Positions 8,322-27,986 of a stretch of DNA of 64,000 nucleotides are shown piece after piece (the first letter of the stretch is position 1; every line of letters begins with the position of its first letter). Below the pieces are notes generated by a model. It searched no databases. It was not told the origin of the DNA and saw only the letters and a list, made by a program, of their open reading frames with translations. The translations under genes were made by a program, and so were the position numbers. Origin of the DNA: Candidatus Thorarchaeota archaeon (GTDB taxonomy: Archaea; Asgardarchaeota; Thorarchaeia; Thorarchaeales; Thorarchaeaceae); the NCBI GenBank assembly GCA_020348985.1, contig CP070761.1, positions 2,300,310 to 2,364,309 on the forward strand, in the 5' to 3' direction.

Positions 8322-8384
8322 TTTGGGTACAGATATTAGACGCCCCTTCACTACCTTGTTAAAACGTTGTAAATAGGAAGGGTT

Positions 8385-9065: not shown

Positions 9066-9107
9066 ATGCCCACACGATTAGCCGAGGATCAGGCATCAAG
9101 AACTAAG

Positions 9108-9263: not shown

Positions 9264-9312
9264 CTTATCCCTCTCTGATGATTTCCAATCTGGCACTGAG
9301 TTTTCCCGCTCC

Positions 9313-10689
9313 TTATCTTGTGAAGTACACAATGCTCTCTCTCAAGACAAAGGACCTTCTTATTCCAGACCTTCTAACTCTGTCGATTTCGATTCCCATA
9401 GGTCTGAATCCTGCTTTCTCGGCCACCATCATAGTAATGAGATCTGTAGGAATATAGACGTCCAGGATCAGGGAATCCCCTACAACCCATGCCACCTTGC
9501 CTCCCGGTCGCATTGAGTCGTGTATTCGACAGAGCACTCGGTAAATGTCTTCGAAGTACTTGCGAATCAGTATATGGTAGTCCTTTCTTCTAATTCCGAG
9601 CCGTTCTCTCATTCTGGGTCTCGTTGCCCTTGTCACATAGGTGACCCAATCAAGGTCGAACAGATCTGGCTGCTCTTCATACTCTTGTATCATTTTCCTG
9701 GAGACATTGTCACAGAGAATCATTCTATCACGGAGCTCTCTAAAATCTGCTGTAGATTGGGCGTCCTCCATCCAGCCAATCTCCAGCTTGTAGTTTCCAA
9801 CATAATCAAATGAGTTCAGATACGGTGGCGATGTAATAACGGCATCCACAGTGTGTTCTGCAGGAATCGCGAATTCCATTGAGTCCTCGTTGTAGATGTG
9901 ACACGGAGGTAACTCGCCTTGAATTCGCTGAACTTGTTCGATGTCTTCAATTATCTGGCCAACTTTCGTCTCGAAGAGCTCCACTGGGAGTCTCACATGC
10001 ACGGCAGTTTCCTTCTTCTTATCATACCCTATCGAAGGCGACCGCTTGAGATTGCTGCAGGGCAGCAGCACAGTCATGAAGGCCAGCTCAAAGTAGATCC
10101 TGAGATCCGGCCGCTCAATCTGCTGAACTTGTTCTTTGATCCTGAGAATGATCTGGAGCACATCAGGTCTAAACTGCCTGTCAGTCTTCATAAACACCGG
10201 AGGATCAATGCTGGTCTCTTTTGTGAAGTCAAGCGATTTCATAGTGTTTCTGATTTCCTCAGGACTGATTTCCCATGCTGTTTTCGCTTTGAGGACCCTG
10301 AAGATCGTTGGATTGATTTCGATGCCCACAGACTCAATCCCTCTCATCATTGAACAGACATTCACCGTTCCTGATCCTGTGAACGGATCCAATATTACGG
10401 AATCCTTCCCAAGACCAAAGTCATCCATTGTGTCGTATACGAAGCTATCAGAGAATCCTTCAAGGTAGTCCGTCCACCGGTGAACTGGCCTCGCCTTGTT
10501 GTTGGCAAAGTTCAGACCACGGCGCTTCAATTCAAAACGAATGCTGACCTCAGGATAGCGAAGCTGGAACTCATGAAGATACGTTTCTGGCGTTTTGAAA
10601 TGAGATCCTATGCTTGTCCATAGGTCCGTATTTCCAGAGTAGAATCGACCCACATCACCGATAAAAGACGAGTCCTGCTCACTGGTCAT
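9313..10689 (-). CDS. DNA amino-methyltransferase (N4-cytosine/N6-adenine type), orphan
   Basis: Motif I DPFTGSGT precedes motif IV ITSPPY; HRW motif; no adjacent endonuclease. Confidence 0.85.
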   Translation of the reverse strand: MTSEQDSSFIGDVGRFYSGNTDLWTSIGSHFKTPETYLHEFQLRYPEVSIRFELKRRGLNFANNKARPVHRWTDYLEGFSDSFVYDTMDDFGLGKDSVILDPFTGSGTVNVCSMMRGIESVGIEINPTIFRVLKAKTAWEISPEEIRNTMKSLDFTKETSIDPPVFMKTDRQFRPDVLQIILRIKEQVQQIERPDLRIYFELAFMTVLLPCSNLKRSPSIGYDKKKETAVHVRLPVELFETKVGQIIEDIEQVQRIQGELPPCHIYNEDSMEFAIPAEHTVDAVITSPPYLNSFDYVGNYKLEIGWMEDAQSTADFRELRDRMILCDNVSRKMIQEYEEQPDLFDLDWVTYVTRATRPRMRERLGIRRKDYHILIRKYFEDIYRVLCRIHDSMRPGGKVAWVVGDSLILDVYIPTDLITMMVAEKAGFRPMGIEIDRVRRSGIRRSFVLRESIVYFTR

Positions 10690-10773
10690 TCTGTTTTCAA
10701 CACGGCAGACCTTTTGGCTGCATGTCTCAAACTCACATTTAAAGTCAAGAGTCTGCTCAACTCTTTCAGGTTC

Positions 10774-11547
10774 CTATACTATGACAACAGCATCCACGAA
10801 AAGCTCGTAGTCCTCATCCTCATCCAAGTTATGAATCAGAACTTTCTCGACCTCGAATTCTCCACGTATCTCAAGCAACCTTGATTCGGTTAGTATTTTG
10901 ACTGAAGAGTTCTCAAGCTCTTCCTTCAATTCATCCGTCGTAACGATCTCATCTGCTGCGGTCAAGAGCACCACCCGGTCAGTAACTGATGTCAGCTCTA
11001 GTGCCACGTCAACTGACTCGTCTCCGGTGTGAACCACTAGAGTTCTCTTCTCCTCGAAGTCAGATGCGTCCATTACAGTCCTGTAGAGTCCATTGTCAAG
11101 ATACTCGTCAGCTCCCACGAGACAGTCAAGATCAAACTCTGTTCCGTCCTCTGACTGAATAGCCTTGATCCCGCGCTGGCGATAGTTCTTGATGGCTTCA
11201 TGTAATGCGTCCGCCGCGAGATTGGAACAATGCATCTTGATTGGAGGAAGACCATCAAGTTCGTCTGCGACATCGTCACGAGTTACCTGCATCGCCTCAT
11301 CAAGCGTCATTCCCACAACCATCTCTGTGGTCATGCTGCTTGTAGCTATCGCAGAACCACACCCAAATGTCCTGAACTTGGCCTCCACGATACGGTCGTC
11401 TTGGACACGAATGAACACTTCCATCAGATCTCCGCAAGTTGGGTTTCCGACACGGCCACTAGCTACGTCATCGCCTTCAAGAACGCCAACATTCCTGGGA
11501 TTTCTGAAGTGGTCGAGAACTTTCTCACTGTATTGTGTTGATTTCAT
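10774..11547 (-). CDS. iscU: Fe-S scaffold IscU/NifU-N fused to a degenerate thioredoxin-reductase-like nucleotide-binding domain
   Basis: YSEKVLDHFRNPRNVG, PTCGD, FGCGSAIA, LPPIKMHCS; extra ~120-aa C-terminal domain. Confidence 0.9.
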   Translation of the reverse strand: MKSTQYSEKVLDHFRNPRNVGVLEGDDVASGRVGNPTCGDLMEVFIRVQDDRIVEAKFRTFGCGSAIATSSMTTEMVVGMTLDEAMQVTRDDVADELDGLPPIKMHCSNLAADALHEAIKNYRQRGIKAIQSEDGTEFDLDCLVGADEYLDNGLYRTVMDASDFEEKRTLVVHTGDESVDVALELTSVTDRVVLLTAADEIVTTDELKEELENSSVKILTESRLLEIRGEFEVEKVLIHNLDEDEDYELFVDAVVIV

Positions 11548-11558
11548 TCAATTTTCAC

Positions 11559-12728
11559 CTACTTCTTTCTCTTGTAGACTGGTGACATATCCCTTAGTCT
11601 CGTTACTATCTCAGGAACCGCCTCTAGAACAACATCGATGTCTTCGTCTTTGTTGAAGCGGCCCACGGTGAGTTGTAGAGAACCATGTGCTTCCTCATGC
11701 AGTAAACCTGTTGCAATGAGTGTATGAGATGGCTCAAGTGTTTTCGAGGTGCAAGCTGAACCTGTTGAAACTGAGATTCCACGGTCCTTGAAAGAAAGCA
11801 GCAATGCCTCTCCTTCGATTCCCTCAAATCGTATGTGTGCATTGCTTGCCAACCTCTGTTCAGGATGTCCGTTTAGATAGCTGTCGGGAACGGTACCCAG
11901 AATCTCTTTGATCAGCCGGTCTCGATAGGTTTTGAAACGCTTGACCTCTTCGGGAAGCTCTTTCTCCATAATCTCTGCGGCTGCACGCATGCCAACAATA
12001 CCGGGCATGTCCTCAGACCCGGATCTAAGCCCTCTTTCCTGTCCGCCACCTATGAGAACAGGGTTCACTCTGAATCCCTTTCTCATAACAAGCACGCCGA
12101 CTCCTCTTGGACCGTAGATATCATTCGAAGATAGTGACATCAGATTGATGCCATCCCTCTTGACATCAAGTGGGAGGAGGCCTTCTGCAGCTACAGCATC
12201 TGTATGAAAGGCAATCCCTTTCTCTGATGCCAGTTTACCAATCTCCTCGATTGGCTGTATCGTACCAATCTCATTATTTGCTATTCCGATTGAAATCAGT
12301 ATTGTCTTGTCTGTGAGCCTTCGTTCAAGCTTCGATAGACTCACGCGTCCGTACTGATCGACGGGGACCTTTGAAACATTGAATCCCTGTCTCTCTAGAT
12401 ACTTGGCAATGTTATGAATCGAAATGTGCTCGACTTCTGATATGACTATGTGATTCCCTTTTCTTTTGTTCTTCATTGCATATCCAATGATTCCCAAGTT
12501 GATTGACTCAGTAGCTCCCGACGTGAAAATGATTTCATCAGTATCAGAGTTCACAAATCTGGCAATTGTTTTGCGGCTCTCTTCCAAAGCCTCTGTCGCC
12601 AAATCTCCGACATTGTGTAGGGTCGATGGATTTCCGAACCTGTCGCGCAGATAGGGCGTCATCTCATCGATAACCCGCGGGTCCACGGGTTTGGCTGACT
12701 GATAATCCAGATATACTTCGGACGTCAC
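11559..12728 (-). CDS. iscS: Cysteine desulfurase
   Basis: IIFTSGATES, NNEIG, HTDA, GGGQE, STGSACTS; the usual SxHK PLP motif reads SSNDIYGP. Confidence 0.88.
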   Translation of the reverse strand: MTSEVYLDYQSAKPVDPRVIDEMTPYLRDRFGNPSTLHNVGDLATEALEESRKTIARFVNSDTDEIIFTSGATESINLGIIGYAMKNKRKGNHIVISEVEHISIHNIAKYLERQGFNVSKVPVDQYGRVSLSKLERRLTDKTILISIGIANNEIGTIQPIEEIGKLASEKGIAFHTDAVAAEGLLPLDVKRDGINLMSLSSNDIYGPRGVGVLVMRKGFRVNPVLIGGGQERGLRSGSEDMPGIVGMRAAAEIMEKELPEEVKRFKTYRDRLIKEILGTVPDSYLNGHPEQRLASNAHIRFEGIEGEALLLSFKDRGISVSTGSACTSKTLEPSHTLIATGLLHEEAHGSLQLTVGRFNKDEDIDVVLEAVPEIVTRLRDMSPVYKRKK

Positions 12729-15326: not shown

Positions 15327-17180
15327 TCAGCGGCTTCCAGACATGTAAGGGTCGTCCTTGGTGTCTATGTCTTTGTAGCCAACTTCTTCGAGGATGTCTC
15401 CCATTCTTTCTGCTCCTTCCACCCAAGTAACGCTCCACCTTCCTTGCTCGGACACAGACACCTCAATGTCCGGAAGGTCGCCGAGGAGGTTGTGATTCAT
15501 TTCGATAACGTCTTGGTACGCTCCAGTGAGTGCTATGACAAAGAACGATCCGTGAAGATTCTCGAGGCGGCCGATAGGTACTCCCTTTCCCTTCTCGGGT
15601 TTTGGCATTGTCATTGGGCGAAAGTCCTTCGTGAACCAAATGGTTTCGGTCTGAGGTCTATGGAATTGAGAGAATTCACCGTCTGAGTCACACGTTATGT
15701 CGACTAGTCTGACCGTGGTCTCAGGATGTACATCAAGTGAGGCATGAGGGACGATTGGGAAGTGCTGATGAACAAGCACATAGTCTCCTATTGCGTTGAA
15801 GACACTAAAATTTCCAACAACGATATGTTCAGGATACCAGAAGCTCCTCAACATGCCGCTGGAAATGAAATCGGTCTCACCTCTTGGTGCAAGGGTTTCA
15901 GCGATGTGTCTTCTTACTGCTGATTCAAGCTCACCAACTATCATCTCGTTTTCCAGAGTGCGTCTCAGGTCCGTTCCAGGAACAGTGTGAATTGAATGGA
16001 ACTCATTCCACAATGGTACTAGATCTTTCACTGTCGTAGTCCTAGAGATACGACCCAGCCACTCATCCCTTGCGGCCGTCAGCTCTTCTGATGTATACTC
16101 CTCTGGCTCGGGGAACACAGATCTCACTTCCAATCCTTCAACTACGACTATGGAGCCAAGAGCAGTTATTCCCCTCCCCGATTCCACTAGGATGTCAGGG
16201 GCCGGCCTCTTCGTGGAATCTACAGATAATCCCCGTTGGATGCCTTGGACTAGTTGACGAGCATACTCCTCCATGTAGTCCTCTCTGTTGGTGCTATCAT
16301 AGTCAATGGCAAGCCCTCCCCCAAAGTCGATAATCTTCAGATTTCGGAGACCCATATCCAAAAGCTCGACATACACTCTCGTCATGTATTCTCCTAGTCT
16401 TCCAAAGCTTGTGACATCCTCAATCTGCGATCCTGCATGGGCGAGAATCGTAGTGATACAGCCTTCAAATCCTGAGGCTTTGAACAACTCCACAACGCTG
16501 AACAAATCGTGAATGCTCAGACCAAACTTTGAGTCACGACCTGAAGAATGTGACCAGTGGCCTTCTACAGAGATGTACGGCTTCAGCCGCAAGACTAGCT
16601 CCGTCTTCTCAGACTCGAATCTCTCTGTGATGAGCTTTGCCTCATGAACTGATTCGACGGAGACAGCCATATGAAACCCGTCTTCCTGCATCTCATGAAT
16701 CATATCGAGGTATTCAGGATCCTTGGCTCCGTTGCAGATGATTCTCCGTTGCTTGGCGTCGCCAATGACTCGTTGGATGAGCAGCAGTTCAGCCTTTGTA
16801 CCGGCCTCCAATCCATAGGCTGGATCGGAACCCACCACCGTTGTGACACAATCTTTTCTCTGATTGACCTTGACAGGATATACAGCGAGAAACTCCCCGG
16901 GATAATCCAGATCGTTTCTGGCCTTATCGAAAGCAGACTTCAGCCGATTCATTTGGGATATTATGAGCTGAGGCACCCTTAGTGTGAAAGAAGTCGTATA
17001 GCCATCATACTCGAAATTCTTCGAATGTATTCGACGAATGATTTCTTCAAAGGAAATGGAATGTTCTCCGATTTTGAGCAGCAAGTACCCATCGTCGTCA
17101 ATGTCCAAGAACCTGAGATCATTTCTTCCGATGCCGTAGACCTTCCTTGCCTTCTCTATTGACCACTCACTCTCACTCAC
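15327..17180 (-). CDS. speA: Biosynthetic arginine decarboxylase (PLP, alanine-racemase fold)
   Basis: VYPVKVNQ, GLEAGTKAEL, CNGAKD, SKFGL, DFGGGL, ESGR, ITCDSDG, GAYQD. Confidence 0.9.
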   Translation of the reverse strand: MSESEWSIEKARKVYGIGRNDLRFLDIDDDGYLLLKIGEHSISFEEIIRRIHSKNFEYDGYTTSFTLRVPQLIISQMNRLKSAFDKARNDLDYPGEFLAVYPVKVNQRKDCVTTVVGSDPAYGLEAGTKAELLLIQRVIGDAKQRRIICNGAKDPEYLDMIHEMQEDGFHMAVSVESVHEAKLITERFESEKTELVLRLKPYISVEGHWSHSSGRDSKFGLSIHDLFSVVELFKASGFEGCITTILAHAGSQIEDVTSFGRLGEYMTRVYVELLDMGLRNLKIIDFGGGLAIDYDSTNREDYMEEYARQLVQGIQRGLSVDSTKRPAPDILVESGRGITALGSIVVVEGLEVRSVFPEPEEYTSEELTAARDEWLGRISRTTTVKDLVPLWNEFHSIHTVPGTDLRRTLENEMIVGELESAVRRHIAETLAPRGETDFISSGMLRSFWYPEHIVVGNFSVFNAIGDYVLVHQHFPIVPHASLDVHPETTVRLVDITCDSDGEFSQFHRPQTETIWFTKDFRPMTMPKPEKGKGVPIGRLENLHGSFFVIALTGAYQDVIEMNHNLLGDLPDIEVSVSEQGRWSVTWVEGAERMGDILEEVGYKDIDTKDDPYMSGSR

Positions 17181-17212
17181 ATTAGTGACCTCTGCCTTGC
17201 GGATGTAGAATC

Positions 17213-18664
17213 CTATTCTTCTTCACCGATGGTATCAAGCATCCCTTGAAATGCTCTGGCGAGATCTCCTATCTCGTCATCCTGTGCCATGAAGGATTCG
17301 TCTACTCGTAGGTCTAGTGTATCTAGGTCTTGTTGCTTAATCATTGCTTCGACATTCCTCATAGCGAGATCCATCAAGTACTGCAATGGCTTAGCAATTT
17401 GGTTCGTAACAACCGTAGCTACAATGCCTGCCAGCACAATGCCTCCGATAGTCACCATCAAGATGAACGATATCGCCGCTGTGTTGGCTTGTGCTATCCT
17501 TGATTCAAGTTGTGGTATGGCAGCAAGCGCCTCCTCCACAGGAACTATGATTGTGCAGATGTACCCCCCGATCCCGACGGGAGCATAAGCCAGAACCATG
17601 TCTCTTCCACTATCCTGAAACTCGATGATCCCTGTACCTCCTGACGTGACTTGTATGATCTGTGCCGTTTCTAACGCTTCAAAATCTTCGAGTGCTGGAA
17701 GATCGGGTTCGTAGAATGCATAGACTGAATCATCAACCTCATGATGGGCCACAATTCCGCCGTCAGAAGTGATCAGTGTGGCATTGCCAGTGTCTAGGAC
17801 TCTGACGTCTAGAATCTTGTCTCTAATGTCATCTACAGTTATGTCACCAGCAATAATACCGAGAAGTGTTCCATTCTGATGATAGAAGGCTCTGCCTATT
17901 GAAAGCAGCAAAACACCATCTATTGGATCGTAGTACGGTCCATCGTATACAATCTCGCCTCCACCATCACGGATGGCCATATACCATTCCTCTTCTGCAG
18001 CCCTGAATTGATCCTGTGGGTCCAATCTGTCAGCTACTGTTCCACCGACCACGCTTCCGGGATAGTTGATGAAGAGGTTGTTTCTGAAAGCAACATAGAG
18101 CCATCTAAACTCAGGCATCTGATTGTGAATGTATTGGAATATGTAATCCAGATTTGAGACACGACTCAATGTTTCATTATGTTGAGTCTCATAGGTCTGG
18201 TAGTTTGTGGGAGTCGAGCCAGGAACATACCAGCTACTATAGCTGAAAGATGCATTGACCTCCCTCCACGGATCCCACTCAATATCTGTTGGAATCGGAC
18301 CTTCTGATATGTGTTCAAAGAAGTAGTCGTAGTATACTTCTCTTGCTCTAAACGTTGATTCAGTCGTGAACAATCCTTCGCATTCTTCAGCCATCGCTCT
18401 AACCATCGATTCGGCAGTCAATAGCTTTTGGTTGATTACTAGTGCATTCTGTTCAGCAGTTTGCTCTATACTTCGCTCTATCTGATTACTTAGAGCTGTT
18501 GTGCTCTCGGTAGTTGTGAAACCACCTATTAGGTCCACGAAGAACAGAGAGACTGCTCCAGTAGCTCCAAGCGAGATGATCGATATCAGAAGGAAGGTGA
18601 CTATGACATTTCTTCTGAAGCTGCCCTTCTTTTTAGTAACAGTATAAGATTGCGCCATATTCAT
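17213..18664 (-). CDS. Membrane sensor TM-dCache-TM-HAMP with no cytoplasmic output domain
   Basis: Two TM helices; EEWY...GPYYDP...GIIAGDI Cache motifs; KPL...DEIGDLARAF HAMP, then stop. Confidence 0.85.
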   Translation of the reverse strand: MNMAQSYTVTKKKGSFRRNVIVTFLLISIISLGATGAVSLFFVDLIGGFTTTESTTALSNQIERSIEQTAEQNALVINQKLLTAESMVRAMAEECEGLFTTESTFRAREVYYDYFFEHISEGPIPTDIEWDPWREVNASFSYSSWYVPGSTPTNYQTYETQHNETLSRVSNLDYIFQYIHNQMPEFRWLYVAFRNNLFINYPGSVVGGTVADRLDPQDQFRAAEEEWYMAIRDGGGEIVYDGPYYDPIDGVLLLSIGRAFYHQNGTLLGIIAGDITVDDIRDKILDVRVLDTGNATLITSDGGIVAHHEVDDSVYAFYEPDLPALEDFEALETAQIIQVTSGGTGIIEFQDSGRDMVLAYAPVGIGGYICTIIVPVEEALAAIPQLESRIAQANTAAISFILMVTIGGIVLAGIVATVVTNQIAKPLQYLMDLAMRNVEAMIKQQDLDTLDLRVDESFMAQDDEIGDLARAFQGMLDTIGEEE

Positions 18665-18671
18665 CCTCCTC

Positions 18672-21497
18672 CTAGTAGTCTACTGTCGAGCCTCCCATCT
18701 CGAGCTGTGCCATCAACACTCCCACTTGTTGGAACGCCCTTTCAATGTCGCTCTTTACGTCAATGCTGTCTACTACAGACAAGTACTGCCCTTGAGGAAT
18801 GTACTCACAGATAGATTCGAGCAGCTGTTCAATTGAGATGTCCCTATGGCCTTCTACAGCTTTTCTCAGCTCCTGGCCTACCCCAATGATAATCAAGTTG
18901 ACGTCAAGGTGTTGGCCGCGAATGAAGCCTTCGATTGTGCGGGCCTTCGTACGCTTCTGCCTATCTCTTTCAGTGCGGATTCCACTGAGCAGATCAAGTG
19001 AATATGTATCAGAGCTATTGTCTTCGCCGTCTGTGAGTGCAATGACCCATCTGTGTTCACTTGATTCAATCCTGTCCAGAGACTCCAGAGCGCTCCCGAG
19101 TGCATCGTAGAATGCGGTTGCATTGTTGGGATACCTGAGCGAATCGAGAGCACGAACAATCGGACTGTCACTTGGATCGTCGTAGTGGCCTTTCAGAGTG
19201 AGAGGAAGAATTTCTCTGTAACCTGAGTTGAAGACGATGATGCTGACTTCGTCCTGAGGATTGACTTGCGAATCAAGTATCTCTTTGGCTCCTTGGACTG
19301 CAGCCTTGATTCTGTCCTGCGCTCGCATGCTGCCCGAGTAGTCAATAACGAAGATGACGCTCTTCTTGAACATTATCGAACGCCGAAGCCGTTCAGCTTC
19401 TCTTCGTACATCATGGCTGGGTTTGTCCAGTTGGTCCAGCACATCAGCTAGTTGCTGCATGGCATAGACAACCAACCAACCCTCCTCAGCTCTTTGACCG
19501 ATTCTAATTGCATCCTGGAATTCGTCTTCGGCATTCTTCCAATCATCTTGGATTACATAGAGCTCACCCATATGATAGTGTATGAATGCTTGACTTCTTT
19601 CATAATCAATCTCTTGAGCAGTCTGAAGTGCTTCTCTAAACTTCGAGAATGCTTCACTATACATGCCCTGTTCCTTTCTCACAAGACCTGTAGCATCAAA
19701 TCGCCTGGCGAGACCCTTCTTGTTGCCAATCGTTAGGTCGATGGCGGCAGCATCGTCAAGATGTCTAATGCTCTCATCGTAGTTACCATTGTCCATCTCT
19801 ACCAGTGCCATGTTGTGGTAGACGGATGCAATTCGTGACATGGCGTCACTTTCATCCGCACTCTGTTCTTTTGCTCTCTCAAGCATTTCATTCGCCATGG
19901 CCAATGACCGTTTGTAGTAGTCCATGGCGTTGCCGGGGTCTCCCCGTTGTCTGAACACGTTACCAATATTGAGGAGCATCGTCTGAATGCCGACGTCGAT
20001 ATTCAATCTCTCGCTAATCTCCAGAAGATTCTGATAGTTAGCTAGCGCACGGTTGAGATCTCCACGAATAAACGCCTGATTTCCAAATCTTACCGCCTCT
20101 TGGAAGCTAAGCAGTGCATCCACCGTGGTTCCCACTTCTTCGAACATCGCTCCAGAAGTGTGAAGCCCTCGCGTGAAGTCCTGTTGGGCCATCTTCTCTA
20201 CGAGTCTAGTCATATCCTTGATTGGCTTCACCACGGCTTGACCTCGGCTGTAGGAACCGTAGCCGACAGCCACAACGGCAAAAGCCAGAACTCCAGCGAG
20301 AATGATTGTCATTTGAAGTGTGTTCGCTTGGACAAGACTGAGGATATCATTCGCGGGTTCTACAACCTCGTCGTAGGGAACGACCACGGCTAGTACAAAT
20401 CCCGTAGTGTTGGCTGTTGAATGGGCGATGTACCAGCTCTCACCATCTTTCTGGAATTGAGAGACACCAGAAGATGTTGAGAGAACTGTACCCAATACAC
20501 TCGTGAAATCCTGTGCTTCAGAAGATGTTTCGGAGCCGAATTCGAGATCATATATGGACTGACCCTCGGTCGTGAAGTCTCTATGAGAAACGACCTGTCC
20601 GGTGTCGGTCAACAGGAACGCGTATCCGCTGTCGAGAATCTGTATGTTGGTCACTTCTGATATCATAGTGTCAAGGGTAACGTCAGCAGATACCACACCA
20701 TATAGGGAGTTGTTGTCGAAGTGGACGGGGCGCCCCATTGAAAGCACAAGTCCCGTTGATGGGTCGCCGTATGGTCCTGTGAATGCAAGCGATGTGTTGT
20801 CCATGATGCCAACAGCATTAGTGTACCAATCCTCTCGCATGTGGTCATAGTCTGTGCCATCTTCGTACCAATCCCAGAAGTACTCTAGATTGTCATAGGG
20901 ATAGTTCCTGAACAGATGAGTTGGGCTGTAGCTGGAATCAATTCCCATGTAGAGCCAGATGTAATCCTCATTCATCTGCCTGAGTGATCGATAGATATTA
21001 TCCATGTTGCTTGAAGTCTCCACGAAGTACTGGGTAGCAGGATCCAAGTCATAGGGGTCACTTGGGTTGTTGTAGAATTCACGCGGCATGTAGTAGCAAC
21101 TAACATCAAAGGAAATCTGTGTGGACTCGTAGATGTCATAGTAAGCGCTAGTCAGCCCGGGCACAGGATGCCCCTGCCCCGCTTCCAGAACCGGGTTCCA
21201 CCAATACGAATCCTGTGGTGTGGCATTCATTCGGTTGTTGAACAATGCCTCACTATAGTCTTCCATCATGAAGACGCCGTCAAAGTATTGCTGCATGCGT
21301 TCGTCAATGAACAGAGCAGTATCACCTGCAATCCTCTGCACGTTCGCGAGTTCTTCTGACTCTAGCGCTGCCGCAGAGTCGGCTGCATTGTCATTCGATA
21401 CCCCGAAAATCGTCAATCCTGAAACAGCGGATATCACAAGTATCGGTATCAATGATACTGCAACGAAGACGATCACAATACGTTTGCTAATGTCCAA
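18672..21497 (-). CDS. Membrane receptor TM-dCache-TM-HAMP-TPR-vWA
   Basis: EDWY...TGPYGDP...GVVSADV and GYAFLL Cache motifs; HAMP; about six TPRs (NIGNVFRQRGD, HNMALVEMDNGN, YHMGELY); vWA MIDAS DYSGS, T, LTDG. Confidence 0.9.
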   Translation of the reverse strand: MDISKRIVIVFVAVSLIPILVISAVSGLTIFGVSNDNAADSAAALESEELANVQRIAGDTALFIDERMQQYFDGVFMMEDYSEALFNNRMNATPQDSYWWNPVLEAGQGHPVPGLTSAYYDIYESTQISFDVSCYYMPREFYNNPSDPYDLDPATQYFVETSSNMDNIYRSLRQMNEDYIWLYMGIDSSYSPTHLFRNYPYDNLEYFWDWYEDGTDYDHMREDWYTNAVGIMDNTSLAFTGPYGDPSTGLVLSMGRPVHFDNNSLYGVVSADVTLDTMISEVTNIQILDSGYAFLLTDTGQVVSHRDFTTEGQSIYDLEFGSETSSEAQDFTSVLGTVLSTSSGVSQFQKDGESWYIAHSTANTTGFVLAVVVPYDEVVEPANDILSLVQANTLQMTIILAGVLAFAVVAVGYGSYSRGQAVVKPIKDMTRLVEKMAQQDFTRGLHTSGAMFEEVGTTVDALLSFQEAVRFGNQAFIRGDLNRALANYQNLLEISERLNIDVGIQTMLLNIGNVFRQRGDPGNAMDYYKRSLAMANEMLERAKEQSADESDAMSRIASVYHNMALVEMDNGNYDESIRHLDDAAAIDLTIGNKKGLARRFDATGLVRKEQGMYSEAFSKFREALQTAQEIDYERSQAFIHYHMGELYVIQDDWKNAEDEFQDAIRIGQRAEEGWLVVYAMQQLADVLDQLDKPSHDVRREAERLRRSIMFKKSVIFVIDYSGSMRAQDRIKAAVQGAKEILDSQVNPQDEVSIIVFNSGYREILPLTLKGHYDDPSDSPIVRALDSLRYPNNATAFYDALGSALESLDRIESSEHRWVIALTDGEDNSSDTYSLDLLSGIRTERDRQKRTKARTIEGFIRGQHLDVNLIIIGVGQELRKAVEGHRDISIEQLLESICEYIPQGQYLSVVDSIDVKSDIERAFQQVGVLMAQLEMGGSTVDY

Positions 21498-21566
21498 ACT
21501 CCTTCCTCCAGATTCTCAACTTGCGTGCTTCCGTAATTTCCAACATTTGGTCCGTAACCTCTAGTA

Positions 21567-23006
21567 TCATTGAGCTTTGAGTTCCTTCTCCAACTTCCAA
21601 ATGAATTGACTAATCTCTTGTCCGGCGTCCAAGGTGAATGTGTCCTCAGAGAAGACCCCTTCTATTTCACCTTCGCCAAGCAAGATTAGTAGGGTCCTCC
21701 TTAGGATTCGTCTGTCTATCCCAGTCTCTTTCTCAAGCCTGAGAATATCCAATGTCTCCCTTCCTTCCAGCAAATCTCGTATCGAGGCCATTGTCTTGTC
21801 GATTGTCTGCTTATTTGGCCGAGGAAGTTTCCTCTTTCTCGGCTTCTTGGTCCGGACGAAAGTACTACCATCAATGTGGCCCTCAATGGCTCCTGCCTGT
21901 ATCATCGCCTGCAGTGAGCGTCGCAGATTGTAGGCAGCCGGTCTTGGCAAGGTTCTTCGGAGAATTCGGTCTAACTCTTTCAGCTCAATGCGATGGTGCT
22001 TTGACGTTATTGAATCAATGCTTTCCTGAATGTATTCCTCAATCACGTATTCGGCGAGTACTTCGAGCTGAGCTCCACATGACTCGCATTTGGCGGCTTC
22101 AGGCGAAGCCGGTGCCCCGCAGTTTCCACACTTGATAGCACGTCGATAGACTGCGTCCTTGGTCGAGTCAATCTGCTGAAGAATCACTTGCTCAGATTTT
22201 GATGCCTTTCCTGTTTCCTGAACTTCCCAGAAGCTCAGTCTCTTATCCCGCGTGCTCACGACTAGATAGGCAACATCTGAAACATCATCAGGGATGCCCG
22301 TAGCCATTGCTTTGGGCGCCGCTTCAATATCAAGTGAAGTGATTTGATTTCCATCTATGTCCCAAATCCTGAGCACGGAAGAGTGATCACCAGTTACGAA
22401 GAGTCGTCTCTCCCCGAAAGTCAGGACGGCGAACGTTGTCAGTGCAGCTCCGAGTTGAAGATCCTTCAACTTGTATCCTGCTGCTGTCAGTATAGTGACC
22501 ACGCCCTTTCTGTCGGCAATTACAACTTCCAGTTCAGTGTCGTTTGTTATGTCCTCTAGCCAGACATCTGCGACAGGACGGTCCATGGTCCGACTGAAGA
22601 GTGCATTCTTGTCATCATTCCACAGGATTACTCGTCGATTCTGAAGAGCTACGACTACCTCGGCAGCGTCATCCCCATCTATGTCTCTAGCATCACAAGC
22701 AACAACTGAGCTTTCCAGTCCAATGTTCCATATTGGGCTTCCTTGATGGTCAACTACTAGCACCTTCTTGCCAACGCCGCCTACAAGGGAGTCCTTTCCA
22801 ACGCCCTCTACGTCGGCAACAGCAATGCATCTGACTTTGCTGCTCCACTTCCTGGTGGATCGGAGAGTTCCCCGGGCATCGTATACTCGTAGCTTATCGC
22901 TGTAGTCAAGGGAGAAAATCTGTGTTCTTGCATCAAGTCGTTGACGGACATAAACCGAGTAGACATTCGCAGAAGTAGGAACCTTCGCAACCGAGCGAAT
23001 ACGCAA
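21567..23006 (-). CDS. Beta-propeller (FG-GAP/WD-like) + double Zn ribbon + tandem PCI-like winged-helix protein
   Basis: DVEGVG, DIDGDD..EVVV, DITNDT..EVVI blades; CGNCGA...CESCGA; MIQAGAIEGHID and LLGEGEIEGVF. Confidence 0.75.
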   Translation of the reverse strand: MRIRSVAKVPTSANVYSVYVRQRLDARTQIFSLDYSDKLRVYDARGTLRSTRKWSSKVRCIAVADVEGVGKDSLVGGVGKKVLVVDHQGSPIWNIGLESSVVACDARDIDGDDAAEVVVALQNRRVILWNDDKNALFSRTMDRPVADVWLEDITNDTELEVVIADRKGVVTILTAAGYKLKDLQLGAALTTFAVLTFGERRLFVTGDHSSVLRIWDIDGNQITSLDIEAAPKAMATGIPDDVSDVAYLVVSTRDKRLSFWEVQETGKASKSEQVILQQIDSTKDAVYRRAIKCGNCGAPASPEAAKCESCGAQLEVLAEYVIEEYIQESIDSITSKHHRIELKELDRILRRTLPRPAAYNLRRSLQAMIQAGAIEGHIDGSTFVRTKKPRKRKLPRPNKQTIDKTMASIRDLLEGRETLDILRLEKETGIDRRILRRTLLILLGEGEIEGVFSEDTFTLDAGQEISQFIWKLEKELKAQ

Positions 23007-23075
23007 CTAAACAAGCACCTTGAATGTTCTTATCTTGTATATGCATATAAGTGTGCACGCGCGCCGGAGTCCGCC

Positions 23076-24158
23076 ATGAGCCAGACACCGACGAAATGTG
23101 ATGTGGGATTCATCTGGAGCTCGAGTCTTGAGAAATTCGACTTTGGTAGAAGACACCCCATCAGAGTCGGCAGGTTCCAAATGGTTCGTGACTTCTTGGA
23201 CGAGACACAGTTTCTTGAGCAGCCTAACGTCTGCGTGATTGAGCCAAAACGGATGCCTGAAGACCTATTGAGTCAGGTGCACTCTCAGACGTACTTGGAT
23301 CAGGTAAAACGGATTTCAGAAACCGGTGAGGGTGAGATCGATGTCGACACCCCTGGATTCAAAGGTATTTACGAGAACGCAAGCATCGCCTCTGGAGGAA
23401 CTGTGTCTGGCGTCAAGGCAATCCTTGATGGAAGAATCAAGCACTTTCTCTCGCCAACTGGTGGGTTTCATCATGCCATGTACGAGAGAGGCGGTGGTTT
23501 CTGTATTTTCAATGATGTCGCAGCGGCAGTCTACATGCTCAAGAGTCAAGGTGTAAACAAGATACTTGTTGCCGATTTCGATGTTCATCATGGCAACGGA
23601 ACACAGAGATACTTCTACAAAGATCCAGATGTCATGGTTATTTCATTTCACCTAGATCCAGAATGGATGTATCCTCACGACGGGTTCATTCATGATATTG
23701 GAGAAGGACCCAGTCGTGGTCACAACATAAACATGCATTTCCCAATGGACGCGGGGGACGCAGTCTATGGATTCGCTTTCGATGAAATTGTCCCACCCTT
23801 GATTGATTGGTTCCAACCTGAATTTATCCTATTCCTGCCTGGATTTGACGCCCATTACTTGGACAGACTGGCCAACATGACACTAACTACAACCATGATT
23901 CGATACGTGGCATCGGAGATCCATGATGCAGCTCACAAATGGGCTAGTGGCCGCCTAGGGGTTCTATCGGGTGGGGGGTATCATCCAGACGCGTTCAGAT
24001 GGGGAGTAGGAGAAGTCATGTCTATTCTGTCCGGACACCCCTATGATGCACCTCCTCAAGAGCCGCCGTTCGAAGATGATGAGGAAACATGGGAGATTGT
24101 TCGAAGCAATGTATCTGAGGTCAAGAGGCTCGTCTTTCCAGAGCTTGGAATCGAATGA
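23076..24158 (+). CDS. Zn-dependent histone-deacetylase/AcuC family amidohydrolase
   Basis: GGFHHA, GFCIFND, DFDVHHGNGT, GFDAH, GGGY; TATA about 26 nt upstream of ATG 23076. Confidence 0.92.
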   Translation: MSQTPTKCDVGFIWSSSLEKFDFGRRHPIRVGRFQMVRDFLDETQFLEQPNVCVIEPKRMPEDLLSQVHSQTYLDQVKRISETGEGEIDVDTPGFKGIYENASIASGGTVSGVKAILDGRIKHFLSPTGGFHHAMYERGGGFCIFNDVAAAVYMLKSQGVNKILVADFDVHHGNGTQRYFYKDPDVMVISFHLDPEWMYPHDGFIHDIGEGPSRGHNINMHFPMDAGDAVYGFAFDEIVPPLIDWFQPEFILFLPGFDAHYLDRLANMTLTTTMIRYVASEIHDAAHKWASGRLGVLSGGGYHPDAFRWGVGEVMSILSGHPYDAPPQEPPFEDDEETWEIVRSNVSEVKRLVFPELGIE

Positions 24159-24227
24159 GCATGTGTGTCACATTGAAAACGGTAATAAGCGGGTTCAATG
24201 CCAAAGCATCGCGAAGGTGGTCCGGCA

Positions 24228-25358
24228 ATGAAGGCAAGCGAAGTTCGTTCCAGTAATGAGTCTGGACAGGAAGGAGAGTCTCCCGAGTTTGTAAGAACTA
24301 GCTTGGCTGCCAGCATGACTATCGGCAAAGTCCCTGGCAAATTCTATCGCGATGCAGAGCTCTACTGCATAAATCTACTTCTGACCTATGACGAAGGGTG
24401 CCACGCAAAGTGTGCATACTGCGGACTTTCTGGTTCACGAGAGACCGAAGGAGAGTGGGTCGATAGCAGTTTCATAAGAGTTGATTGGCCCGTGTTTGCT
24501 CTGGACGACATCAAGACAGCAATTACAGACGGGACTTGTCCGCATGTAGAGAGAGTTTGTGTCTCTATGATCACCAATAGACGCGCCCGCGAAGACTGTA
24601 TCGCCGTTGTTTCGGAACTGAAAAAGGTGATTCCTCGAATCTCGGTGCTAATCACGCCTACCATTGTCACTAGAGATTGGCTCGTCCGAGTCAAGGAGGC
24701 AGGAGCTGACATGGTTGGTATCGCAGTTGACGCTGCAACCCGTGAGATATTTGACTCTCTGAGAGGCAAAGGAGTTGGCGGCCCTCACAAATGGGAAAAA
24801 TACTGGGACACCATCCGCGACTCTGTAGAAGTCTTCGGACGTTTCAATACGGGTGTTCATCTCATTGTTGGAATAGGAGAAACTGAGCAAGAGATGATCG
24901 GCACCATCCAAGAAGCTCACGACTTGGGTGCTGATACTCATCTTTTCTCATTTTTCCCCGAAGAGGGGTCAGTCATGGATCAATATCCACAACCCCCTAT
25001 TGGAGCCTATCGAAGAGTGCAGATGGCAAGGTACATTATCAACACAGAAAAAGGCAGAGCAGAGCGAATGCAATTCAATGAACATGGTCAAGTTCTCGAC
25101 TTCGGAATGGGACATGATGTTGTTGAGAACCTGCACGAATATGGTGGGGCATTCATGACATCAGGGTGTTCTGGTGAGTCGATGGACCATGCCTGCAATC
25201 GTCCATTTGGCAACTGCTCACCATATCAGGCATCAATTGGACACTGGCGCAACTTCCCGTTTCATCCTGAGGAAAGCGACCTGATTCATGTAAGGGACCA
25301 GCTTCAGGACTACTCACTTGAATACTCGGTGGATGATCAAGAATTTGACGCAGATTGA
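24228..25358 (+). CDS. lipS2: Radical SAM lipoyl synthase subunit LipS2
   Basis: CHAKCAYC; C-terminal TSGC...CNRP motif typical of LipS2; lipoate ligase context. Confidence 0.8.
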   Translation: MKASEVRSSNESGQEGESPEFVRTSLAASMTIGKVPGKFYRDAELYCINLLLTYDEGCHAKCAYCGLSGSRETEGEWVDSSFIRVDWPVFALDDIKTAITDGTCPHVERVCVSMITNRRAREDCIAVVSELKKVIPRISVLITPTIVTRDWLVRVKEAGADMVGIAVDAATREIFDSLRGKGVGGPHKWEKYWDTIRDSVEVFGRFNTGVHLIVGIGETEQEMIGTIQEAHDLGADTHLFSFFPEEGSVMDQYPQPPIGAYRRVQMARYIINTEKGRAERMQFNEHGQVLDFGMGHDVVENLHEYGGAFMTSGCSGESMDHACNRPFGNCSPYQASIGHWRNFPFHPEESDLIHVRDQLQDYSLEYSVDDQEFDAD

Positions 25359-26379
25359 AGATATCGGGCATTTGATTGATGAGTGTCTGCATGCACCCAT
25401 CGAGTCTCTAGACCCACTGTTTGAGAGGGCATTCAAGGAGGCCCGAGAGAGATTCTCCGACACGATTGCGTTTCATATGCCTGGAATGGTTCACTATGAG
25501 ACTGATTTCTACGAAGCTACCGATCCGTACAGGTTCCCAAGCTTTTCCGTCACCGGCTCTGGTTGTGCACTAAACTGTGAGCATTGTAAGGGACATCTTC
25601 TTGAATCCATGATTCCAACTCTTGCTCCAGAAATCCTGTGGGAAAAGCTTCGGGAAGTGAAGAGGAGGGGAGGGAAGGGTGCGCTTGTTAGCGGGGGGGC
25701 GACATCCAAAGGCAACACTCCTCTCATGGAATTCGTCCCCGTAATGGCAAAGGCGAAGAAAGAATTGGACCTTAACATTGTAGTACACACTGGCGTCGTC
25801 TTCCCAGAAATGGCTAGGGCGCTTGCAGATGCAGAAATCGATGGAGCTATGCTCGACGTAATTGGTTCGGCGGAGACTCTGCGAGAAGTCTACCATCTCA
25901 ATCTCAAACCCACATCTTTTGATCAATCGATGGCACTCCTCGAGGAGAATGGAGTGCCTGTTATGCCTCACATTGTAGTTGGGCTACACTTCGGGAAGCT
26001 AGTTGGAGAGGCAGAGGCCATCAAGATGATTGCCAAACATGATCCAAAGTCAATCATTGTGGTTGCATTGAAACCACTAGATGGAACGCCAATGGAACAG
26101 GTGACCCCGTCAAGTCCGACTGACATTGCTCGGGTTATCCTTGCCACAAGACTTGCAATCCCAGACAAGCCTCTGATACTTGGTTGTGCCCGGCCTCATG
26201 GAGCACATAGAAGGGAAACCGACCGGCTTGCCATTGACGCAGGTGTCAGCGGCATCGCTTATCCCACCGAAGAGGGCTATGAGCATGCTAAGGAGCGCGG
26301 CCTCTCCATTGTAATGTCGGAAGAATGCTGTTCCCTAATGGACAACGCACTGCCTTTGTTGTCACAAGGAGGCCGTTGA
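25333..26379 (+). CDS. lipS1: Radical SAM lipoyl synthase subunit LipS1
   Basis: CALNCEHC; GCARP and terminal CC motifs typical of LipS1. Confidence 0.8.
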   Translation: MIKNLTQIEDIGHLIDECLHAPIESLDPLFERAFKEARERFSDTIAFHMPGMVHYETDFYEATDPYRFPSFSVTGSGCALNCEHCKGHLLESMIPTLAPEILWEKLREVKRRGGKGALVSGGATSKGNTPLMEFVPVMAKAKKELDLNIVVHTGVVFPEMARALADAEIDGAMLDVIGSAETLREVYHLNLKPTSFDQSMALLEENGVPVMPHIVVGLHFGKLVGEAEAIKMIAKHDPKSIIVVALKPLDGTPMEQVTPSSPTDIARVILATRLAIPDKPLILGCARPHGAHRRETDRLAIDAGVSGIAYPTEEGYEHAKERGLSIVMSEECCSLMDNALPLLSQGGR

Positions 26380-27986
26380 GTTTGACTGAGTGGAGACTTC
26401 TTGATACTGGTGTTCTCACTGGCGCTCAGAACATGGCATTGGACGACGTCGTTCTTGAGTGTCGCTCTCAGAACCTTACACCCAATACACTCAGGTTTCT
26501 GCAATTCAGCCCATCCACTGCGTTGATCGGATATCATCAGTCCGTTGAACAAGAGATTAGATCAGAATATGTGAAGAGAAATGGCGTCGATGTCAACAGA
26601 AGGATTACCGGGGGCGGAGCTATCTTGTTCACACCCACCTGTCTCGGGTGGGAAGTCTTTGCCGATAAGGAATCACCTGGCATAGGGGACCTGAAGTGGG
26701 ATCTCGAAAAGCTGGCAAGAAAGGTCTGCAATGGGGCAATTGAGGGGCTCAAACGGTTGGGTGTTGATGCCGAATTCAGACCGAAAAACGACATAGAGGT
26801 CAATGGCAGGAAGATCTCAGGTACGGGCGGGACGGAGAGAGGGGACGCATTTCTGTACCAAGGAACTCTGCTTGTAGACTTCGATGTAGATCTCATGCTT
26901 CGTTCACTTCGAATTCCTGTTGAGAAACTGAAAGACAAGGAAGTCGAGAGTGTTAAGGAACGAGTCACATGGTTGAGTCGAGAGCTCAATGCTCTCCCCT
27001 CAATTGAGAAGATAAAACAAGCCTTCGTAAGGGGATTTGAGGAAGTCTTTGACATGACTCTGGTTCCTGGCGGCTTAACTGATTCCGAGAAGAAGCGGTA
27101 CAAAGAACGTCTCCCCTATTTTGAGTCGGATGATTGGATTGATCTCGTACAACGACCGAAGACCGATGCAGGTCAAGTCATGGCAGTCAGGAAGACACCT
27201 GGTGGTCTCATCAGGGTCTCCATAGCACTGGACCTTGTTGGCGACTTCATTGTAAGCTCATTCATCACTGGCGACTTCCAGGTATTTCCTCAAAGGGCCA
27301 TTCTTGATCTAGAGGCCCGGCTGAAGAATGCCCCTACGGATGAGGATTTCATCCGCCAGACGGTTGCTGAATTCTTCGAGGAGACTGGCACAAGAATACT
27401 CGGTGTAGATCCCGAGGACATCGTTCAGATAATTCTAGAAGCCATCAAAAAGAGAGAATTCGTTGAATGGGGCGTCACACTTGAGGAATCTAACCACATC
27501 ATGACTGTCAACTTCATGCCAGATGAACTGGCCTCGCAGACCTTCGACTATATCCTGTTACCTTATTGCGCGAAACTTGTCGAATGCGACTACCGTTACT
27601 TTGAAGGATGCACAACTTGTGGTGATTGCACCACGAGCGATATCTACGGACTAGCTGTCGATCTTGGCTTACCAGTCAGAACGATTCAGAACTTTGAGCA
27701 CTTGATGGAGTCGATTCAGGAGTTCAAGGAAAGGGGCGCTCGAGGTTATGTGGGTTCCTGTTGTGAGGGCTTCTATAACAAACATCACGACGACTTTGTT
27801 GAAACCGGAGTGCCAATGCTTCTCATCGATGTTGATGACTCCACGTGCTATGAACTAGGAGAGGAAAGAGAAGCATACCTCGGCGAGTTCGAAGGTCAGA
27901 CAACGCTGAAAGTAGACTTGTTTACGAAGGTTGTCAAGGTCCTCTCAGAGAAAGGAATCCTTCGTGGCGAGGTGCTATCTCATTAG
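26376..27986 (+). CDS. lplA: Lipoate:protein ligase (fused AB) with extra Cys-rich DUF116-like C-terminal domain
   Basis: NMALD, RRITGGGA, NDIEVNGRKISG, TGDF; tail LPYCAK..C..C..CGDC...GSCC; TTG start after AAGGAGG. Confidence 0.88.
   Translation: MSLTEWRLLDTGVLTGAQNMALDDVVLECRSQNLTPNTLRFLQFSPSTALIGYHQSVEQEIRSEYVKRNGVDVNRRITGGGAILFTPTCLGWEVFADKESPGIGDLKWDLEKLARKVCNGAIEGLKRLGVDAEFRPKNDIEVNGRKISGTGGTERGDAFLYQGTLLVDFDVDLMLRSLRIPVEKLKDKEVESVKERVTWLSRELNALPSIEKIKQAFVRGFEEVFDMTLVPGGLTDSEKKRYKERLPYFESDDWIDLVQRPKTDAGQVMAVRKTPGGLIRVSIALDLVGDFIVSSFITGDFQVFPQRAILDLEARLKNAPTDEDFIRQTVAEFFEETGTRILGVDPEDIVQIILEAIKKREFVEWGVTLEESNHIMTVNFMPDELASQTFDYILLPYCAKLVECDYRYFEGCTTCGDCTTSDIYGLAVDLGLPVRTIQNFEHLMESIQEFKERGARGYVGSCCEGFYNKHHDDFVETGVPMLLIDVDDSTCYELGEEREAYLGEFEGQTTLKVDLFTKVVKVLSEKGILRGEVLSH

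Follow-up and report, generated by a model that had tools for sequence, protein, structure and literature searches.

To our knowledge, no class of extracellular sensor is commoner in prokaryotes than receptors that join an extracellular Cache domain to a HAMP domain, and all those characterised, as far as we know, drive either an enzyme or a chemotaxis array. The bacterial dCache_1-HAMP receptors are homodimers that end in a methyl-accepting chemotaxis protein (MCP), kinase, cyclase or phosphatase domain. The subject of this analysis is a four-gene module of Candidatus Thorarchaeota archaeon (GenBank assembly GCA_020348985.1, contig CP070761.1), located at 15327-23006 of a stretch of 64,000 nucleotides (nt) that corresponds to contig positions 2,300,310 to 2,364,309 and is referred to, at its full length, as the window. 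The module encodes two paralogous dCache_1-HAMP sensors, one long and one short, together with a beta-propeller protein and an arginine decarboxylase of the SpeA type. Unlike the bacterial receptors, the pair has an output composed of tetratricopeptide repeats (TPRs) and a von Willebrand factor A (vWA) domain, an obligatory paralogue without any output, and a Glu in place of a pocket Arg. The reading that is slightly favoured here is that the sensors form a conserved, kinase-free heteromeric receptor, derived from two ancient paralogues, which signals by TPR/vWA-mediated protein recruitment. Its novelty would lie in the coupling of a Cache-HAMP input to an output made up of protein-binding domains only (TPRs and a vWA domain bearing a metal-ion-dependent adhesion site, MIDAS), which needs an output-less paralogue. 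The features of the module are listed below by window position, with amino acid (aa) positions in the respective protein.

21567-23006, minus strand: gene 1, propeller/Zn-ribbon/two-winged-helix protein, 479 aa (open reading frame, ORF)
22218-23006, minus strand: gene 1, six-bladed beta-propeller, aa 1-263 (AlphaFold model)
22062-22139, minus strand: gene 1, Zn ribbon, aa 290-315, preceded by a helix (weak Pfam match and model)
21852-22052, minus strand: gene 1, winged helix 1, aa 319-385, followed by a basic linker (model)
21573-21812, minus strand: gene 1, winged helix 2, aa 399-478 (model)
18672-21497, minus strand: gene 2, long sensor, 941 aa (ORF)
gene 2, aa 7-25: first transmembrane segment, TM1 (hydrophobic window)
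20328-21380, minus strand: gene 2, dCache_1, aa ~40-390 (Pfam and model)
gene 2, aa 394-412: second transmembrane segment, TM2 (hydrophobic window)
20067-20231, minus strand: gene 2, HAMP, aa 423-477 (homology and model)
19377-20066, minus strand: gene 2, six TPRs and a cap, aa 478-707 (Pfam and model)
18693-19364, minus strand: gene 2, vWA domain with MIDAS residues D719/S721/S723/T794/D823, aa 712-935 (Pfam, model and alignment)
17213-18664, minus strand: gene 3, short sensor, 483 aa (ORF)
gene 3, aa 20-38: TM1 (hydrophobic window)
17480-18532, minus strand: gene 3, dCache_1, aa ~45-395 (Pfam)
gene 3, aa 401-419: TM2 (hydrophobic window)
17228-17395, minus strand: gene 3, HAMP, aa 424-479, followed by GEEE and the stop (weak Pfam match)
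15327-17180, minus strand: gene 4, SpeA-type arginine decarboxylase dependent on pyridoxal 5'-phosphate (PLP), 617 aa (ORF)

Domains of the long sensor were assigned using Pfam, NCBIfam and an AlphaFold model (pLDDT 82). The dCache_1 domain (PF02743) scored 59.2 bits against a cut-off of 45, many TPR families were matched (TPR_12 with 88 bits), and the vWA domain was recognised by VWA with 35 bits and VWA_2 with 51 bits. The model comprises TM1 and a stalk (3-86), a bimodular dCache domain (100-374), TM2 with the first HAMP helix, AS1 (375-437), a loop, the second HAMP helix, AS2 (453-477), twelve TPR helices with a cap (481-707), and a vWA fold (712-935). Foldseek matched the dCache_1 part to Mlp24/37, PctA/B/C and 3LI8/9, with target TM-scores of 0.56-0.72, and the TPRs to those of the KLC/LGN type. 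On its Rossmann-like fold the vWA domain carries the DxSxS, Thr and Asp metal ligands of a MIDAS, and these residues (D719-x-S721-x-S723, T794 and D823) were invariant among 18 diverse aligned members, down to 19% identity. A HAMP-like K-P-I...EEVG pattern, comprising the AS1 proline and the start motif of AS2, follows TM2 directly. Neither sensor gave a match at E 0.1 to HATPase_c/HisKA, MCPsignal, GGDEF/EAL, Guanylate_cyc, SpoIIE or Pkinase in Pfam or NCBIfam, and the additional matches on the sensors were partial sensor or TPR overlaps only. The hydrophobic windows and their flanking basic residues place the N-termini and everything after TM2 of both sensors in the cytoplasm, and the vWA domain of the long sensor is therefore predicted to be intracellular.

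The short sensor scored 67.3 bits for dCache_1, above the same cut-off; a HAMP-like K-P-L...DEIG pattern lies directly after its TM2, and the chain stops 4 residues beyond AS2. The long and short sensors are each other's sole paralogue in the 3.16-Mb genome, with 25% identity, and a search of this genome detected no further dCache_1 or HAMP protein, so the pair is the only dCache_1/HAMP system detected there. A preliminary description of this DNA, made from the letters alone, had proposed four co-oriented genes with gaps of about 69, 7 and 32 nt, a receptor lacking kinase, cyclase and MCP domains, about six TPRs and a cytoplasmic vWA domain with an intact MIDAS, in contrast to the alpha2delta proteins, and a paralogous sensor ending right after HAMP. 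The coordinates of the four minus-strand ORFs confirm the arrangement with gaps of 69, 7 and 32 nt, and the domain searches, model, alignment and topology given above agree with the remaining points.

Conservation of the module was determined at increasing distance. The order propeller-long-short-SpeA was found in 15 of 15 Thorarchaeota loci examined and holds down to ~40% identity, where the outer neighbours (a histone deacetylase (HDAC)-like gene and an M24 peptidase) differ; many metagenome loci have the same order. With this recurrence in all Thorarchaeota loci examined, the arrangement greatly exceeds what chance would produce. In a set of 40 relatives, most genera of the same family have the long gene, always with the short gene directly after it, and the module keeps its chromosomal position among housekeeping genes from one genus to the next. 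Dozens of homologues of the long protein (860-950 aa) that align from end to end at 19-45% identity came out of an exhaustive search through 1.8 billion cluster representatives; eight of ten that were sampled have dCache_1, TPR and VWA matches, three of those with a scoring HAMP domain, and the other two scored for two of the three. When one genome of each prokaryotic species was scanned for the pattern, 89 loci were obtained, of which 80 were kept; all 80 are labelled as archaeal genomes or metagenome-assembled genomes (MAGs) and none as bacterial, and all those with a lineage name are Asgard. The lineages comprise Thorarchaeota, a Heimdallarchaeota chromosome with two copies, the cultured Lokiarchaeum ossiferum, Promethearchaeum, Hermodarchaeota and Sigynarchaeum. 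The short gene lies directly after the long gene in every scan locus with enough sequence, including the two Heimdall loci, Lokiarchaeum ossiferum, Promethearchaeum and the Hermod- and Sigynarchaeial loci; the two genes are adjacent in this order in one high-GC archaeon too. Occurrence in cultured Lokiarchaeum ossiferum makes bench study possible. In the literature on Asgard archaea in combination with Cache, HAMP, vWA or TPR, no description of the sensor pair was found.

The two Heimdall copies, both on CP070760.1, differ in their surroundings. One (L081) has a divergent SpeA gene and a propeller gene and is without the pocket Arg; the other (L095) has neither neighbour and carries Arg in the long-sensor pocket, and its short sensor is extended at the C-terminus by a Zn-ribbon-like segment. 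The pair is also present in a high-GC (0.62-0.66) archaeal group (L136 at 7278-11827, L148 and L167), where the neighbours include an archaeal Hef-type helicase-nuclease; a comparison of the high-GC pair with prokaryotic species representatives gave TPR matches only. Short orthologues stop at most 25 aa after HAMP in all lineages, except L095 (544 aa) and the high-GC group (at least 599 aa).

A maximum-likelihood tree was calculated from the region common to both paralogues (TM1 to HAMP), so that each paralogue roots the other. LONG and SHORT proteins formed reciprocal clades with Shimodaira-Hasegawa-like approximate likelihood ratio test (SH-aLRT) values of 96/96, and of 100/100 without the compositionally odd high-GC group. 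The two subtrees mirror each other, with Hermod joined to Sigyn, Loki to Promethearchaeum, Thor to one Heimdall copy, and the other Heimdall copy to two archaea, and with a giant-virus clade in each. The topology indicates one ancient duplication followed by co-divergence, the two genes having stayed together from a time that predates the divergence of the Asgard lineages. The long and short regions of the high-GC group cluster together (SH-aLRT 100), which could be due to a separate duplication, to gene conversion or to an artefact of composition. Recent truncation of the short sensor was ruled out by the short orthologues across lineages and by the paralogue-rooted tree, and the short form is ancestral. 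Loss of gene order and recent truncation had both been named beforehand as outcomes that would refute the preliminary reading of a heterodimeric receptor signalling by protein-protein interaction; the order is kept in every Thorarchaeota locus examined and the short form is old. The propeller gene, likewise proposed to be encoded with the sensors, turned out to be a conserved neighbour even where its position changed.

Natural fusions of the two sensors were found in seven representative clusters of 1521-1652 aa (P0241, P0233, P0235, P0272, P0206, P0243 and P0247) and in a 1719-aa open frame of a metagenome contig (L153, 4150-7134); they have four TM-like segments. The N-terminal half is nearest to SHORT proteins and the C-terminal half is a complete LONG protein, and the tree places the halves in the SHORT and LONG clades, respectively. 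Taken together, the invariable adjacency, the co-divergence, the joint presence outside Archaea and the natural fusion provide strong indirect evidence that the two sensors act in one complex. In EukProt, fusion P0241 bears the label Mallomonas annulata, a chrysophyte; a second fusion is also from that source, without an organism name. On the strength of that label, the Mallomonas-type fusion is a putative eukaryotic dCache_1 plus VWA architecture with the VWA outside the Cache domain, which departs from the rule given in PMC8915833. In addition, several contigs of 3-3.7 kb carry one long ORF of the same architecture and look like monocistronic transcripts. The eukaryotic origin of most such sequences is assigned from one named EukProt label, one nameless EukProt record and these monocistronic contigs.

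Adjacent short and long genes, in reversed or divergent order, were also detected in three IMG/VR giant-virus MAG contigs and several low-GC metagenome contigs (L109/L112 at 7398-11765, L110, L111, L113-L118, L121, L122 and L161; GC 0.21-0.31, one 0.44), the giant-virus assignment being the GVMAG label of the source, IMG/VR. A photolyase gene and a gene with major-vault-protein repeats are neighbours of the pair in L109. P0239, P0169 and P0187 were looked up in viral and metagenome contigs and gave no match. The eukaryote-type and giant-virus sequences nest in the archaeal diversity beside Heimdall- and Thor-type sequences (SH-aLRT 95-98), and an approximately unbiased (AU) test did not reject a tree in which all archaeal long sensors are monophyletic (p 0.25). 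It is a tentative and rather unlikely proposition that the pair is an Asgard invention inherited or acquired early by eukaryotes, so that Asgard archaea, giant viruses and protists, the last with a fused four-TM chain, would all have a kinase-free recruitment receptor. Few of these sequences carry a taxonomic label. If the Asgard-to-eukaryote reading were true, the module would represent an undescribed eukaryote-like outside-in signalling in archaeal relatives, and a second eukaryotic Cache plus VWA architecture distinct from alpha2delta.

Ligand specificity was assessed at the positions of the dCache_1AA amino-acid motif, which in PctA numbering are Y121, R126, W128, Y129, Y144 and D173 (PMC8915833, Gumerov 2022). 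The corresponding residues are Y217, E222, W224, Y225, Y243 and D272 in the long sensor and F220, E225, W227, Y228, Y244 and D274 in the short sensor. The residues responsible for holding the ligand amino group (the Trp/Tyr pair, the second Tyr and the Asp) are retained in both, and both depart from the complete motif in that the carboxylate-holding Arg is replaced by Glu (E222 and E225). This combination favours an amine (a decarboxylated amino acid or a polyamine) over an amino acid as the Thor ligand, and the Thor pockets look re-tuned from amino acids towards amines. Every SpeA-linked module among the loci compared is without the pocket Arg, which is kept in the Loki-type sensors (without SpeA), in the second Heimdall long sensor and in one other. 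The best PDB sequence matches of the short sensor were the Methanosarcina mazei kinase sensors 3LI8 and 3LIB (E 4e-10 and 1e-8), followed by Mlp24/37 and PctB, which sense amino acids; 3LIB carries the amine motif dCache_1AM and is an archaeal protein shown experimentally to bind an amine (PMC10589655, Cerna-Vargas 2023).

Gene 4 matched the biosynthetic arginine decarboxylase family NF003763 over its full length (NCBIfam, E 1.5e-102, 344.2 bits), with scores below the equivalog cut-offs (344.2 vs 369 bits for NF003763 and 320 vs 624 for TIGR01273). Its PDB relatives are 3NZP, 3N2O (which matches residues 8-606) and 3NZQ, and the motifs YPVKVNQ (with the PLP lysine), GGGLA, ESGR and CDSDG align with 3NZP; the gene apparently encodes an intact SpeA-type enzyme. 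Archaea need agmatine for the agmatidine modification of tRNA-Ile2. The genome contains one SpeA, one agmatinase-family gene, one S-adenosylmethionine (AdoMet)-decarboxylase domain and TiaS; no pyruvoyl arginine decarboxylase was detected in it, which leaves SpeA as the sole arginine decarboxylase detected. SpeA and the pyruvoyl enzyme are complementary in their distribution: in Thor and the Heimdall genome SpeA adjoins the module and the pyruvoyl enzyme is absent; in Lokiarchaeum, Sigynarchaeum and one Hermodarchaeon the pyruvoyl enzyme is present, SpeA is absent, and no decarboxylase gene lies next to the module. Among 41 related genomes, the long sensor and SpeA were both present in 20 and both absent in 17, SpeA occurred without the long sensor in 4, and the long sensor without SpeA in 0. 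SpeA lies co-directionally downstream in Thor, L084 and L088 and divergently upstream in Heimdall L081 and L078, and its adjacency has thus outlasted an inversion between Thor and Heimdall.

Two genomes without the sensors were informative. In the related Thorarchaeon L195 (G003:C7:6000-24000), a deletion scar at 8985-9454 joins propeller aa 29-67 to short-sensor aa 366-483 and adjoins an intact SpeA and the usual HDAC-like neighbour, which indicates that the module was lost by one deletion and SpeA was kept. In the sensor-less genome L197 (G006:C21), SpeA (7138-8910) lies directly between the HDAC-like gene and IscS. Identity to the window counterparts is only 34% for this SpeA and 53-77% for its neighbours, which suggests that, once the module was lost, SpeA evolved fast or was replaced. 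Since SpeA is the sole arginine decarboxylase detected, TiaS is present and the gene was kept after sensor loss, SpeA looks like a housekeeping enzyme. The preliminary description had taken it for a candidate signal-producing enzyme, a claim that is not supported by these observations or by the absence of SpeA from the Loki, Hermod and Sigyn modules. Whether SpeA is instead a regulated target of the receptor is about an even call.

The AlphaFold model of gene 1 (pLDDT 84.7) comprises 24 strands forming six blades, a helix, a Zn ribbon and two winged helices; Pfam gave weak propeller and Zn-ribbon matches only, and no TM or signal segment was found in the protein. Fold searches returned a flat list of generic propellers, with NHL on top (Z 23.8), followed by WD40 proteins, lactonases, BBSome subunits and integrin alpha (Z 19.8). 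Integrin-like alpha/beta homology was rejected, as the propeller has six blades and the NHL/WD40 match is no worse than that to integrin alpha: the seven-bladed FG-GAP type of integrins was not found, FG-GAP_3 reached just E 0.04, and integrin alphaIIb ranked 49 (Z 19.8). Kinship with the BBSome or intraflagellar transport (IFT) proteins was also rejected, since the BBS2_Mid and PHTB1_N matches in Pfam are weak and BBS2, BBS1 and BBS9 stand among hundreds of equally scored propellers. The propeller/Zn-ribbon orthologue is located upstream of the pair in Thor, downstream in Loki, Promethearchaeum, Hermod and Sigyn, and on the opposite strand in one Heimdall locus. This adjacency, which survives relocation, argues for a functional link between propeller and sensors. 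The propeller partner of Hermodarchaeota-type loci (L098, L102, L107 and L108) is 622-624 aa long, with an extra middle domain of ~250 aa before the C-terminal Zn ribbon. In the giant-virus locus, a 384-aa neighbour was considered as a propeller candidate and found to be unrelated (hhalign probability 0.2%).

The following mechanism is proposed. The long and short sensors would assemble into a heteromer, in the simplest case a heterodimer, with one chain of each contributing to the HAMP four-helix bundle, so that each receptor would bear one TPR-vWA arm. A ligand in the membrane-distal Cache pocket would be relayed through TM2 and HAMP and would alter the binding of a cytoplasmic partner by the arm, whereby a protein would be recruited or released without catalysis. 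The best candidate partner is the propeller/Zn-ribbon protein, whose gene adjoins the pair in most archaeal lineages; the Thorarchaeota form, with its two extra winged helices, is possibly a sequestered DNA-binding regulator. SpeA, as the housekeeping source of agmatine, would be coupled to the module in the lineages that rely on it and would plausibly be a regulated target, and external amines would then feed back on agmatine and polyamine synthesis. If true, the module would show Asgard archaea sensing their surroundings without two-component logic, with an external amine signal tied to the essential agmatine supply and with a receptor family that they share with protists and giant viruses.

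Several points weigh against this proposal. Pfam gave no match to HAMP (PF00672) at E 0.1 in the long sensor and 19.6 bits, below the cut-off of 25, in the short one; with Pfam itself absent or below threshold, HAMP was assigned in both Thor sensors because of the model and of orthologues that score above the cut-off (P0145 with 36.2 bits, L136 with 46.8 bits for the long and 42.8 bits for the short sensor). Comparison of propeller orthologues showed that the winged helices are a Thorarchaeota addition, and profile searches with the winged-helix tail found no significant PDB relative (best E 0.18); the fold-search results for gene 1 were filled by propeller matches. No propeller gene was found beside the second Heimdall copy, beside L084/L088 or in the giant-virus locus examined, and the propeller is therefore not an obligatory partner everywhere. 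The Hermod and Sigyn sensors lack both Arg and SpeA, and the correlation between Arg loss and SpeA amounts to two or three independent contrasts. The persistence of SpeA without sensors (the G003 scar and G006) indicates that SpeA is independent of the module and that the module is dispensable. Adjacency, co-divergence and fusion also fall short of proving a 1:1 heterodimer.

Alternatively, the two proteins may be separate homodimeric receptors, the long one signalling alone and the short one serving as a ligand sink, a decoy or a co-receptor that contacts another partner through its HAMP domain. Classical Cache-HAMP receptors are homodimers, both sensors keep complete pockets and HAMP domains, and the joint clustering of the high-GC long and short regions fits repeated duplication or conversion better than strict specialisation. 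This alternative is nevertheless considered unlikely, because the strict adjacency, the mirrored trees, the joint presence in giant viruses and the short-long fusions are hard to explain by it, and because the short form has no output in most lineages examined, the exceptions being the C-terminal extensions of the 544-aa L095 protein and the high-GC forms. The module might also be a constitutive membrane anchor or scaffold, in which the TPR-vWA part tethers a complex (with the propeller, the cytoskeleton or trafficking proteins) and the Cache domains serve adhesion or matrix binding. Domains of the vWA, TPR and propeller types are typical assembly modules of eukaryotic intracellular complexes, the TPRs resemble the cargo adaptors LGN and kinesin light chain, and the family extends to eukaryotes and giant viruses. 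Conservation of the dCache_1 small-molecule pocket residues in both paralogues, and of a HAMP relay between membrane and arm in all lineages, is however as expected for a ligand-switched device, and makes a fixed scaffold quite improbable.

The link to SpeA may, in turn, be an inherited neighbourhood only, in which case the module would be unrelated to agmatine or polyamines and the Thor ligand would be another. This has a substantial chance of being correct, somewhat short of even: apart from its housekeeping character (sole arginine decarboxylase detected, TiaS present), SpeA stays when the sensors are deleted, and the module occurs without it in Loki, Hermod, Sigyn, the second Heimdall copy, giant viruses and protist-type sequences. 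On the other hand, the adjacency to SpeA survived rearrangement while the flanking genes changed, no SpeA-linked module has the carboxylate-binding Arg, and none of the 41 relatives has the long gene without SpeA. A conflict or defence system, or a vWA system of the Bat/MoxR type, was considered as well, given that NTP-dependent conflict systems and BatA-E operons commonly contain vWA domains, TPRs and beta-propellers and that BatB is among the nearest solved vWA domains. It is very improbable, as PADLOC matched nothing beyond a generic TPR, no MoxR, STAND or effector gene is present in the locus, the position among housekeeping genes is stable across genera, and the composition of the locus is not island-like.

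Candidate transcription and translation signals were located by direct reading of the sequence upstream of gene 1.

23045..23050, minus strand: TATA-box-like TTATAT, 39-44 nt upstream of the TTG start of gene 1
23016-23020, minus strand: Shine-Dalgarno-like AGGTG before gene 1

No comparable A/T box was read in the 69-, 7- and 32-nt gaps, each of which contains a GGAGG- or GAGGT-like motif; this pattern is suggestive of a single transcript for the four genes. The neighbours of the module are HDAC-like, radical-SAM, LplA, M24 peptidase, IscS and NifU genes. The HDAC-family gene (22941-24158, plus strand) is divergent from the operon, and its longest ORF shares 66 nt with the start of the propeller gene; the orthologue matches begin at residues 29-55, and its true start is therefore probably downstream. 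Further along (24198-27986, plus strand), a pair of neighbouring radical-SAM genes, of which one encodes a BATS domain, precedes a gene for a fusion of an LplA-type lipoate ligase with DUF116. This cluster is kept beside the module in several Thorarchaeota and looks like an archaeal two-protein lipoyl synthase and ligase cluster.

The closest described counterparts of the sensors are PctA/PctB/PctC, Mlp24/Mlp37 and Bacillus subtilis McpB/McpC, which have the same TM1-dCache_1-TM2-HAMP input, are the closest matches by fold and sequence, and align one-to-one at the motif positions. The M. mazei structures 3LI8/3LI9/3LIB are archaeal dCache_1 domains like those of the Thor sensors and the top-ranked fold matches of the long sensor; unlike the Thor pair, they are kinase sensors, and the likeness found is one of overall sequence and fold. 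The alpha2delta and CACHD1 proteins combine, as the long sensor does, dCache_1 and a MIDAS-type VWA in one membrane protein, and alpha2delta (8x90_B) was found at rank 14 among the fold matches. In these proteins, the VWA is inserted within the distal module of dCache_1 and is extracellular (PMC8915833), whereas that of the long sensor is C-terminal, after TM2, HAMP and the TPRs, and cytoplasmic. Specific kinship of the vWA domain with alpha2delta was rejected, as by sequence it is no closer to it than to TRAP, BatB, ITIH and CMG2.

The BatB-type proteins of the aerotolerance operons of Bacteroides and Leptospira also combine a membrane vWA domain with TPRs; BatB (3IBS) is among the nearest solved vWA domains (E 0.003), and a BatC-like TPR match was obtained with NCBIfam. 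The Bat operons, however, lack a Cache/HAMP input and are linked to a MoxR ATPase and DUF58, neither of which was found at the Thor locus; nor did a search for defence systems with PADLOC return a candidate beyond the generic TPR. As a functional analogy, integrins and GABA-B receptors offer enzyme-free outside-in docking, the logic of an asymmetric heterodimer, and a vWA/MIDAS domain beside a propeller. Unlike in integrins, the propeller is six-bladed and both it and the vWA domain are cytoplasmic, and no homology was shown. In the literature found, the output of the module is without a described counterpart, and it is joined to an input half that is a regular dCache_1-HAMP receptor.

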